From positions 480,001-544,000 of the forward strand of contig CAVRAG010000008.1 of assembly GCA_963718895.1 (NCBI GenBank): 64,000 bases of DNA, read 5' to 3'. The position numbers were made by a program, and so were the translations under genes. Positions within the stretch are counted from its first letter, which is position 1; every line of letters begins with the position of its first letter. Origin of the DNA: an uncultured Nitrososphaerota archaeon (GTDB lineage Archaea > Thermoproteota > Nitrososphaeria > Nitrososphaerales > Gagatemarchaeaceae). Under the pieces are notes generated by a model, which had not been told where the DNA came from, did not search any database, and was given only the letters and a program-made list of their open reading frames with translations. This document shows positions 55,479-57,507 of this stretch, piece by piece.

Positions 55479-57067
55479 TTACCTTTTCACCATTCTTCCC
55501 GGCTTCGGCAGTCCCGGACTTCTCGGCCATCTCCTCCTGGACCTCCTCGATCTCGGCTTCTTCCTGCTTGATGAGCTGGTGGTACCTCGGCTCCTTCTTC
55601 TGGCCGGCCAACTCGGTGGAGAACTGCGCTATGAGGGGGAGGTACCTCTCGTAGATGCCCATCTTCCTCTGGACGGCCGCCATGGACCCTTTCTTCGAGA
55701 GGAAGAGGCTGAGCCGCCTGAGGGTCTCCCTCACGGCGTTGCGGATCTCGGACTCGATCTCGGGCCTGTCGGCGATGTACTCCTTGCCGACGGTCTTGTA
55801 GGGAATCTTGGTCGAACAGATGTGGGTGATTATCCCGATCGGGGCGTCCTCGGGAACGTGGTAGCGCCTCCAGTCTATCTCCTCGTTGAGCACCTTGAAC
55901 GAGACGTCGTTGCCCTCGTCGTAGAGCAGGGGTATGCGATTCGCGAACCTGAAGAGCTTCCTCCCGGGCTCGAGGAGCTTCCCTCCGTAGACAAGCCCGA
56001 CCTCGACCAGAAACGGAAACCCGGAGTAAGACGATGGCGGTCTCACGACGACGGTGGAGAACTCCGGCTGCAGCTCCTTCATGATCCCGGTCTGGAGAAT
56101 CGGCTCCCCCACTGGTGAGAGGCAGGACGCGTCCGGCGGGAGGAACTCGGGATATCTCTGGAGAGCGTCGACAACCCTGACTATCTGTTCGTTCGAGAGC
56201 TTCTCGGGGGCGATCCTGGTCTCGATGCCGGCGAAGTTGAGGAACTTCCTTGCGTTGGTCTCGCCGACCCTGTGGAAGTGCTTGTTCCCCATGAACTTCT
56301 CCATCGTCTTCTCATCGGTGAGCTTGATCATCCGCTTGAACGCCTCGACGTCCACGCCGTACGGGTGCGGAAGGGTCTCCTTCGGCGCGGGGGGCATCGA
56401 CTCGGTGGCCCTCTCGTAGGTGGTGATCCTGCCTATCGGGTCGACGAAGGTGAGGTTGGCGTATGACCCGACGAGTGCTGTCTGCTTGAAGTACTCGTTG
56501 ATCTTCTGCGCCGCTCTGGTGAAGTCGCCCTCGAGGATGACGTCGACCCTTGTGCCCGTCTTCTCGGCGCCGTCCTCGGTGTCCTTTCGGAGGATGATGG
56601 GCTTGTTCTCGGAGATGTCTATGAGCATCTCGAAGATGTGCCTGCTCTTGCCGTCGGTCGAGGTCGTGATCTTCACGGGCTTGTTCGTCGTTATCTGGCC
56701 GTAGAGGATGGCCATCGTCCCTCCCATTCCGAACATCCCTCTGGACTGCCTCAGTACGTACTTGGAGCCATAGAAGACCTTCCCGAACGCCCTCGGGACG
56801 TGGTGGGGGTCGACTCCGGGACCGTTGTCTGCGACGGTGACCCTGTAGGCCTTCGGCTCCTGGTTTGCGTTCTCGGCGGAGGGGTCGTCGGCCACGATGC
56901 GGACGTAGATGTCGGGGAGGATGCCGGCGAGCTCCGTGGCGTCGAGCGAGTTCTCCACGAGCTCCCTTACGGCCATGTAGAGCGCCCTCGCGGGGTTGGT
57001 GAAACCAGCTAGGTCGCGGTTACGGTAGAAAGAATTCAGATGGACTAATCTCGGAGAAAGTCACCAA
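55447..57067 (-). CDS. top6B: DNA topoisomerase VI subunit B; N-terminus joined by a +1 frameshift near 57030
   Basis: [31 protein letters not shown]; upstream [12 protein letters not shown] | [10 protein letters not shown], with SD GGAGGTGA at 57077-57084. Confidence 0.9.
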
Positions 57068-57072
57068 TCTGT

Positions 57073-57282
57073 TCACTCACCTCCGGAAATGCCGCCGTAC
57101 CATTGATTCAGAATAGACATTGTGTCTGCCCTCGCCGTGCAGTGCTGAGTTCGGCAAGAAATCAGGTCGTTCCGCACGAAAGTGTAAGATCTTTCTGTCT
57201 TGGATGCGATTTCGTTGATTGACATCCCTCCAGCGTACAATGAAGGGAACACGCTCGGGGAAATCTCAGAAGATGTTACCAA
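57073..57282 (-). pseudogene. Duplicated top6B N-terminus fused to an HTH remnant (possible decayed selfish gene)
   Basis: MVTSSEISPSVF followed by LYAGGMSINEIASKTERSYTFVRNDL. Confidence 0.5.
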
Positions 57283-57507
57283 GTTACCTGATTAGCACCT
57301 TACTAACGTCTCGCGGCAGGGGTTCTATTAAAATTAGATTATAATGAGTTCTGTCAATCCCTTTGCCCGAAGCTGACGTTGACTCTCAACCGTCCACTCT
57401 GAGGATTTACCGTCCTCTCCTGGGACGGGTTCAGACATAGTCGGCTCAGGTCCAGAATCCCGCTGCAACAAAAAGGGAGGAGAGGCCCAGGCCTGTTGAG
57501 CCCAGAC

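Follow-up and report, generated by a model that had tools for sequence, protein, structure and literature searches.

To our knowledge, gene 60 of phage T4 and its homologues in other phages form the only known lineage in which a selfish nuclease is paired with translational recoding. In T4, the HNH nuclease MobA and the 50-nt bypass insert of gene 60 belong to one cassette in a topoisomerase gene, and many phages retain the insert after loss of MobA, according to the accessible portions of two sources (PMC5009743; 10.1101/2022.08.31.505936). Experiments established that this insert protects the phage gene, whereas sequence differences confined to the replaced region were not enough to block MobA (10.1101/2022.08.31.505936). 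Here we describe a comparable arrangement in top6B, which encodes a subunit of topoisomerase VI, in an uncultured Nitrososphaerota archaeon of the family Gagatemarchaeaceae. The window, that is, the whole stretch analysed, comprises 64,000 nt of this genome (assembly GCA_963718895.1, contig CAVRAG010000008.1, positions 480,001 to 544,000); all coordinates count from its first base.

The 5′ end of top6B in the window holds what is left of a decayed mobile cassette, the core of which was a free-standing LAGLIDADG homing endonuclease gene (HEG). Two diverged copies of the Top6B N-terminus are present. Copy b opens a 69-codon open reading frame (ORF), the relic of the nuclease gene, and copy c lies behind a second Shine–Dalgarno (SD) sequence and meets the body of top6B with one extra T. 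Our best joint reading, to which we assign a probability of roughly 0.8, is a decayed mobile HEG cassette with a compensated ‘savior’ indel, from which Top6B is produced by +1 ribosomal frameshifting. The features of the locus are these:

57333–57326, minus strand: TATA-like box TTTTAATA, read directly; probably the ancestral top6B promoter, now upstream of the relic ORF
57282–57247, minus strand: copy b, the ancestral top6B codons 1–12 with a TTG start, LVTSSEISPSVF; now opens the relic HEG ORF
57282–57073, minus strand: relic of a LAGLIDADG HEG, 69 codons, with TGA at 57075–57073
57243–57166, minus strand: helix-turn-helix (HTH) of the relic, residues 14–39 (Pfam HTH_58, PF19575)
57153–57145, minus strand: internal-deletion scar between relic residues 44 and 46, where two BLASTP segments abut
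57084–57077, minus strand: SD sequence GGAGGTGA of the second top6B start, read directly
57067–57029, minus strand: copy c, cassette-borne, recoded top6B codons 1–13 with a TTG start at 57067
57031–57026, minus strand: TTT CTA, the proposed +1 shift site, at which the two frames are read directly
57022–57020, minus strand: TAA stop of the unshifted frame, two codons past CTA
57027–55447, minus strand: top6B body in the +1 frame, YRNRDLAGF... to the stop, with Topo-VIb_trans and HATPase_c domains

The likeness to T4 mobA/gene 60 extends to several levels. Both cases involve a free-standing HEG, with neither intron nor intein, in the gene for the ATPase subunit of a type II topoisomerase; in both, the element supplies a homologous but diverged replacement for the host codons that it displaces, and an insertion beside this replacement breaks colinearity, which the ribosome must (here, presumably) overcome. 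Nuclease and recoding insert are linked in each (here in six of six intact HEGs and in none of 30 in-frame loci), close empty alleles exist, and the insert outlasts the nuclease in many genomes. The two differ in that ours sits in an archaeal chromosome rather than a phage, carries a LAGLIDADG rather than an HNH nuclease, and involves a single nucleotide and a +1 shift rather than a 50-nt hop. The archaeal host gene is also left unsplit, as the HEG takes its start and a full replacement N-terminus is supplied. There is no sequence homology between the two systems, and protection by the insert is demonstrated in T4 and proposed here. By analogy, the cassette may work like mobA/gene 60, as its non-homologous archaeal counterpart.

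The literature that we searched (including the accessible part of Antonov et al. 2013, with subscription journals largely uncovered) contained no archaeal top6B frameshift, no free-standing archaeal LAGLIDADG gene of such design and no HEG-linked frameshift. If the reading is true, this would be a second, independent pairing of a selfish nuclease with a recoding signal, and the first from archaea or from any cellular chromosome. It would also add a conserved +1 frameshift in a core, replication-related archaeal gene; very few archaeal recoding cases are listed in the accessible part of one review of the field (PMC5009743).

The nuclease was identified through a relative. The preliminary description had proposed a free-standing homing nuclease that borrows the start of top6B and supplies a recoded N-terminus, and just such a gene occupies the same position in a genome of the same genus (G003). 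Its intact 319-aa ORF (P0001) opens with the Top6B N-terminus, contains HTH_58 (E 3.9e-6) and LAGLIDADG_3 (E 6.5e-7; 30.0 bits against a cut-off of 22.5) domains, and ends in ...WYNDIVGGE on the SD sequence of the second top6B start. The window ORF matches P0001 residues 1–44 at 75% identity (BLASTP, E 6e-21) and residues 296–319 at 50% identity (BLASTP). The approximately 251 codons for residues 45–295, with both LAGLIDADG motifs, are missing, and LAGLIDADG_3 finds no match in the 69-aa ORF. What is left is top6B codons 1–12, the HTH and the C-terminal tail (LVTSSEISPSVF-PSLYAGGMSINEIASKTERSYTFVRNDL...WYGGISGGE); the nuclease core has gone through an in-frame deletion. The HTH that had already been noted in this ORF is a marginal HTH_58 match (E 4e-5, 23.9 bits, cut-off 23.8). 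The ORF is thus an internally deleted LAGLIDADG HEG, and the window holds a relic rather than a cutting-competent member. No intact HEG was found elsewhere in the genome of the window, in which the relic is the sole match. A relic of the same shape occurs in G001, and the copy-b region is present and further decayed in G011, G010 and G005.

In intact relatives, the two motifs read LLLTMxxTEGY and VLRIxADTEGS, and the T-E-G of both is invariant in 37 of 37 aligned homologues; in the genomic copy of G199, which lies outside this alignment, motif 2 reads TQG. A fold search was needed because a sequence search of the Protein Data Bank with the intact HEG gave nothing significant (best E 0.37). With an AlphaFold2 model of intact P0001 (predicted local distance difference test score, 90.2), Foldseek retrieved I-DmoI, I-Tsp061I, I-SceI, I-AniI and the nuclease domain of an intein (TliVMA), each with a probability of 1.0. 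With the archaeal LAGLIDADG enzymes of rRNA introns and inteins (I-DmoI, I-Tsp061I and TliVMA), P0001 shares the fold, αββαββα twice over, the two-motif single chain and LAGLIDADG_3, at target-normalised template modelling scores of 0.54–0.61 and sequence identities of 14–17%. It differs from them in being free-standing with its own stop codon (ahead of copy c), in its extra N-terminal HTH_58 and in its target, the 5′ end of a protein-coding gene. No Rfam family matched L001 or L011 on either strand at E ≤1, a search for introns that did not specifically cover bulge-helix-bulge archaeal introns.

The protein database holds 45 clusters of this nuclease family (all E ≤4.7e-52). Seventeen open with a strict Top6B-like motif and a few more with degenerate versions, whereas about 20 were called from an internal methionine and are without the Top6B-like region. 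IMG/VR contained no viral carriers of the HEG. As a LAGLIDADG scaffold, the family has a target that can be inferred and that lies within a fully conserved motif.

Copies b and c, both recognized in the preliminary description, were upheld by a reading of the minus strand and by orthology with relatives. At the protein level 10 of 12 residues agree, yet the DNA matches at only about 23 of 36 bases, and both serine codons swap between the TCN and AGY families. The 12-residue match is weak by score (tblastn, E 0.22), and it is the orthology with relatives that makes the pair real. The TATA-like box, likewise noted before, is conserved in six relatives, and the surrounding block ATTATAATC.AATTTTAATAGAACCC is kept in L001, L002, L003, L004 and L006. 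In L007, the uninterrupted allele of G002 (same genus as the window), this promoter block (TTATAATC..TTTTAATAGAACCC) stands immediately before the top6B start codon. Bases 332–420 of the window upstream region align with bases 548–636 of L007 (78% identity, E 5e-13), a segment that includes the genuine top6B start of L007. The codons of copy b (TTG GTA ACA TCT TCT GAG ATT TCC CCG AGC GTG TTC) agree in their choice of TCC CCG AGC with the L007/L003-b type (TCG/TCC-CCA/CCG), unlike copy c. The promoter block and start of G002 are orthologous to copy b. Copy b is therefore the original top6B start, which now drives the relic, and copy c was brought in by the element.

The SD sequence ahead of copy c, another feature pointed out earlier, doubles as coding sequence for the final residues of the relic, GGE. 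The relic stop is separated from the second TTG (57067) by 5 nt, and the SD sequence lies 7–9 nt before the start in 12 of 12 frameshift alleles listed for the genus of the window. A third copy of the N-terminus that had been suggested at 57389–57363 (copy a) is rejected: a tblastn search of the 69-aa ORF against the upstream region (E ≤10, word size 2) matched only b and c, with no detectable similarity at copy a, and the stretch is not conserved among the closest relatives. The accompanying idea that insertion had possibly happened twice found no support.

Mobility is best seen in a pair of close alleles, one empty (G144) and one occupied (G348), the two states that had been predicted to exist among relatives (G003 being a further occupied one). 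Their flanks align base for base with scattered differences, which fixes the insertion point. Relative to G144, G348 gains the HEG behind the first host codons, a duplicated SD/start region, in which most wobble positions of codons 1–13 are recoded, and a single additional T. This comparison shows a precisely bounded element with close empty and occupied alleles, as for a free-standing HEG. Three synonymous changes in the first codons downstream of the insert are what co-conversion would be expected to leave. In intact copies generally, the HEG has no start of its own and is fused in frame behind the host promoter, start codon and first ~12 codons, and its 3′ end brings an SD sequence and the synonymously recoded second copy of top6B codons 1–13. 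Codon 12/13 of top6B appears to be the target of the cassette. The motif around it does not vary anywhere in the order and is therefore an ideal nuclease target, with little scope for synonymous escape.

In fungal mitochondria, LAGLIDADG genes that enter host genes duplicate the host codons that they displace; Allomyces atp6/ORF360 is reportedly a similar case. In-frame fusion with a host gene, for example rps3, is described in PMC7902536 (citing Gibb and Hausner 2005). As in those fusions, the HEG here lies inside a protein-coding gene and is fused to it in frame, with function kept by a duplicated gene end. The fungal cases differ in concerning the 3′ end of an organellar gene without a frameshift; here a 5′ end in an archaeal chromosome is involved, with take-over of promoter and start.

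The most unusual feature of the locus, overlooked by the preliminary description, is that the reading frame of the replacement N-terminus is offset by one base from that of the gene. Copy c had been taken to lead into the top6B body. Its own frame instead reads GAA TTC TTT CTA CCG TAA and stops at 57022–57020, and YRNRDLAGF... continues in the +1 frame; the junction is GAA TTC TTT C TAC, with one extra T. Translated across the shift, copy c and the body give a single open product, a 539-aa Top6B with Topo-VIb_trans (3.6e-55) and HATPase_c, and no second top6B was found in the genome of the window (one match). Between its upstream stop and M29, the body frame contains no ATG, GTG or TTG. The unshifted frame ends two codons past CTA in 24 of 30 frameshift loci (23 TAA, 1 TGA), and CGT at Arg15, which creates the TAA, is found in 25 of 30 frameshift alleles versus 8 of 30 in-frame alleles.

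Conservation holds on both sides of the junction. In the frame of copy c, EISPSEFF is invariant in 30 of 30 frameshift loci with two to four synonymous codons per position, except that the last F was fixed as TTT by the search pattern and hence has no codon variation; serine codons switch between AGT and TCG across these loci. In the body frame, YRNRDLAGF is invariant in all 30, and every position except the last varies synonymously. For the first 100 body codons, eight frameshift–frameshift pairs (dS 0.65–1.5) have ratios of non-synonymous to synonymous substitution rates (dN/dS) of 0.017–0.077, close to the 0.02–0.047 of in-frame pairs; a further pair, L001/L011, with 49 of 100 residues identical, was out of register and was dropped. 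For the body of the window gene against G001, the value is 0.021. Both frames are under strong purifying selection, and the gene is alive. We strongly infer that ribosomes produce Top6B through a +1 shift at UUU CUA, which makes TTT CTA a natural archaeal candidate +1 shift signal for testing.

We searched for the frameshift pattern in 401 genomes of the order (the relatives are bins of varied quality and are not independent of one another). It occurs in 36, all in the family of the window (36 of 97 genomes, six genera), with no case among the 304 genomes of 19 other families and no match to a reversed-pattern control. The in-frame pattern is present in 49 of the 97 family genomes and neither pattern in 13. 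A looser pattern that allowed any two bases at the spot returned the identical 36 genomes, all TTT-C. Automatic annotation will truncate or pseudogenize top6B in about a third of the family genomes. One bin with a contamination of 6% (G013) holds frameshift and in-frame top6B starts on separate contigs, C95 and C88 (L037 and L070); it is probably a mixture of two strains or species, possibly from a population polymorphic for the cassette scar.

Intact HEGs are present in 6 of the 36 frameshift genomes (G003, G199, G227, G322, G348 and G196) and partial relics in three (G000, which is that of the window, G001 and G311). The other 27 have no HEG match past the Top6B-like start, and those of their loci that were inspected by eye retain only the last codons of the HEG, GG(E/D/G)xx-stop. 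None of the 30 in-frame loci fetched contains the HEG. A scan of 185,579 species, one genome each, with five intact ORFs as the query found six HEG loci, and in six of six, copy c, the extra T and top6B come after the HEG. The family displays the whole HEG life cycle side by side, with alleles that are empty, occupied, decayed or reduced to a scar. In a Top6B tree of 66 rows (G020, with two loci, G022 and the second G013 allele were too short to include), the frameshift state needs at least 14 changes, at least nine of them forced by starred branches. This patchy distribution fits repeated invasion and loss.

The HEG inserts at codon 12/13, taking the host promoter, start and first ~12 codons, and the cassette restores the host gene behind the HEG through its SD sequence and recoded codons 1–13; in the genome of the window, an in-frame deletion then stripped ~251 codons to leave the 69-codon HTH ORF. 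The extra T lies exactly at the junction of element and host gene. A one-base offset between target half-sites would block a LAGLIDADG enzyme, and by offsetting them the T may render cassette and post-cassette alleles immune to cutting. After decay of the nuclease it could persist as a resistance allele, which would explain why the T outlives the HEG in 27 of 36 genomes. From the position of the extra T at the insertion point, we infer with moderate confidence that it is a ‘savior’ indel for immunity, the cost of which is met by frameshifting; the logic would be that of the T4 gene 60 insert.

Classical +1 sites include prfB (CUU UGA C), yeast Ty1 (CUU AGG C) and antizyme (UCC UGA U). As in these, the P-site tRNA here would be able to re-pair at +1, a slow or rare codon would occupy the A site, and the unshifted frame ends soon. 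Peptidyl-tRNA-Phe (anticodon GAA), wobble-paired on the rare UUU, may move to UUC, which it matches better, while the A site still holds the uncommon CUA. No codon would then begin at C 57028, and reading would resume with the common UAC (TAC, 57027–57025); ribosomes that do not shift would terminate two codons later. In this genome, TTT makes up 10.4% of phenylalanine codons (the third rarest codon), CTA 5.3% of leucine codons and TAC 79.5% of tyrosine codons. The shift differs from the classical ones in that it appears to compensate for an indel and not to regulate.

A quadruplet-reading or otherwise odd tRNA-Phe was looked for and not found: the only candidate is a tRNA-Phe(GAA) with a normal 7-nt loop, CUGAAGA, and G37, although a second tRNA-Phe may be missing from the incomplete tRNA set (the genome is 80.5% complete). 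This gene (G000:C8:1318506-1318644, plus strand, 139 nt) has two apparent introns and was missed by ARAGORN. Rfam tRNA models match only 28 times in the 3.1-Mb assembly, in which many tRNA genes may be intron-rich or unassembled.

A lead as to why the shift is tolerated comes from tRNA modification. The Taw1/TYW1 wyosine domain (PF08608) was found in none of 33 genomes of the family (32 that are at least 85% complete, plus that of the window at 80.5%) and in 96 of 118 elsewhere in the order. PF08608-negative lineages may have tRNA-Phe without wyosine derivatives, and one might speculate that the apparent lack of Taw1 makes tRNA-Phe more slip-prone. The fullest version of our account is that the HEG made an essential archaeal gene depend on a +1 shift, that the T gives self-immunity, is spread with the cassette through homing and outlives the nuclease as a resistance allele in a third of the family, that wyosine loss allowed its tolerance, and that this is an independent, cellular solution like that of T4 gene 60. 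We regard this combination as tentative: it is possible, though the odds are somewhat against every part of it holding.

Several observations weigh against frameshifting, or against the role that we give to the T. Unlike at classical sites, the A-site sense codon is only moderately rare (CTA is the seventh rarest codon, and a tRNA-Leu(UAG) gene is present in the genome), and no stimulator was found: nothing SD-like lies near the shift site, and no conserved RNA structure was detected near it (over 30 alleles, alifold −4.45 and mean z 0.18). Nor do 1,070 long ORFs avoid in-frame TTT CTA (15 observed versus 9.2 expected, in a crude set of ATG-started ORFs of at least 300 codons, some possibly spurious); the hexamer by itself is therefore probably not a highly efficient shift site. 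The Taw1 pattern is essentially that of one clade and thus a correlation only; in families f7 and f14, PF08608 likewise had no match (none of seven genomes each), and no frameshift pattern was found in those searched. In-frame alleles (G002, G019 and G017) are nested among frameshift alleles, which fits frequent reversion and would mean that the shift carries a cost. All 36 frameshift alleles may descend from one cassette, in which case the conservation of TTT-C would partly reflect shared ancestry. Decoding by frameshifting is, moreover, a reading of DNA alone.

The rival that we take most seriously, a live alternative although less likely than not, leaves relic and frameshift real and denies the T any protective value. 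The T would be a hitch-hiking scar of cassette assembly, kept by chance slippage and slow reversion. The identical TTT-C of all 36 alleles, with possibly a single origin, would suit this, as would in-frame alleles within frameshift clades if they are reversions, and the recoding of copy c at most wobble positions might by itself suffice for immunity. In T4, however, polymorphisms of the homologous region failed to block MobA and the insert did block it, as the accessible part of that report states (10.1101/2022.08.31.505936). A T that was merely costly should also revert readily by one-base deletion in the T run, yet it is kept in the 27 of 36 genomes without an HEG match past the start, across six genera and with dS near saturation. 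It is improbable that the relic is instead retained for a job of its own, whether regulating the top6 operon as a small HTH protein or, as an upstream ORF, feeding ribosomes to the top6B start. Its deletion is in frame, it is open in G000 and G001, its stop lies 5 nt before the top6B TTG with its last codons forming the SD sequence, and its dN/dS between these two genomes (0.27–0.30) is below 1. That value, which covers only 65 codons and is 14 times the 0.021 of the top6B body, indicates weak constraint at most, and the two relics are 53% identical, compared with 96% for Top6B. The region is further decayed in three relatives, and 27 of 36 frameshift genomes have no HEG match past the start. 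A dN/dS below 1 may reflect residual selection, for example through translational coupling to the top6B start 5 nt downstream.

Two further explanations concern the frameshift itself. The frame could be restored by other means, either through loss of a U by RNA polymerase slippage or editing, or through non-canonical initiation in the top6B frame. A longer run, TTTTTT, in 9 of the 36 alleles would favour slippage, but in the other 27 the run is just TTT with a C on either side, shorter than known slippage requires. Odd initiation conflicts with the body frame, in which no ATG, GTG or TTG precedes M29 although Y14–F22 is invariant, and with the conservation of copy c in its own frame; we consider this pair of routes very improbable. 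That the frameshift alleles are sequencing errors or dead genes is hardly credible. Many of the assemblies are metagenome bins and one of them (G013) holds both allele types, yet the same insertion recurs in 36 assemblies, including two that are single-contig and rated 95–100% complete (G007 and G041), and the six HEG-bearing records have six different accession prefixes. The low dN/dS of the body, like that of in-frame alleles, and the failure to find a second top6B in the genome of the window speak against a dead gene. Among Logan DNA contigs from four public runs, none spans the shift site and the best ends at 57031. A 151-nt Logan contig over the copy b/HEG junction (57117–57267) has no differences from the window; it possibly derives from the source sample and counts neither way. 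The compensated HEG cassette remains our preferred reading.

The flanks of the locus yielded some minor observations. The upstream neighbour (57508–57897, minus strand) is an MscL homologue (Pfam MscL, 1.3e-19), and the distance from its end to a conserved methionine inside top6B runs from 273 nt in the G002 allele up to 532 nt in the window, tracking the remaining cassette debris. Directly downstream, top6A (52842–55478, minus strand; an 878-aa ORF) is interrupted by an intein that includes a LAGLIDADG nuclease domain (Pfam LAGLIDADG_3, 1.8e-8, next to Intein_splicing, 6.6e-14); the ORF as listed, from TTG 55478, overlaps the end of top6B (55447) by 32 nt. With this intein and the relic in top6B, both topoisomerase VI subunits here have been struck by different selfish nucleases.

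In three frameshift genomes, top6B is also interrupted at the catalytic N-box, where an intein-like insert immediately follows VRELVEN (L040 of G007, L031 of G188 and L047 of G260). The insert starts SFPY... and in G007 ends ...LLHN|SLD. Finally, most top6B alleles of genera g20 (L048–L060 and L078–L090) and g3 (L019 and L065) have CTG where relatives have ATG, TTG or GTG. This codon stands behind an SD-like GGAGGTG in in-frame and frameshift alleles alike, with no alternative in-frame start, and may be a conserved CUG start.

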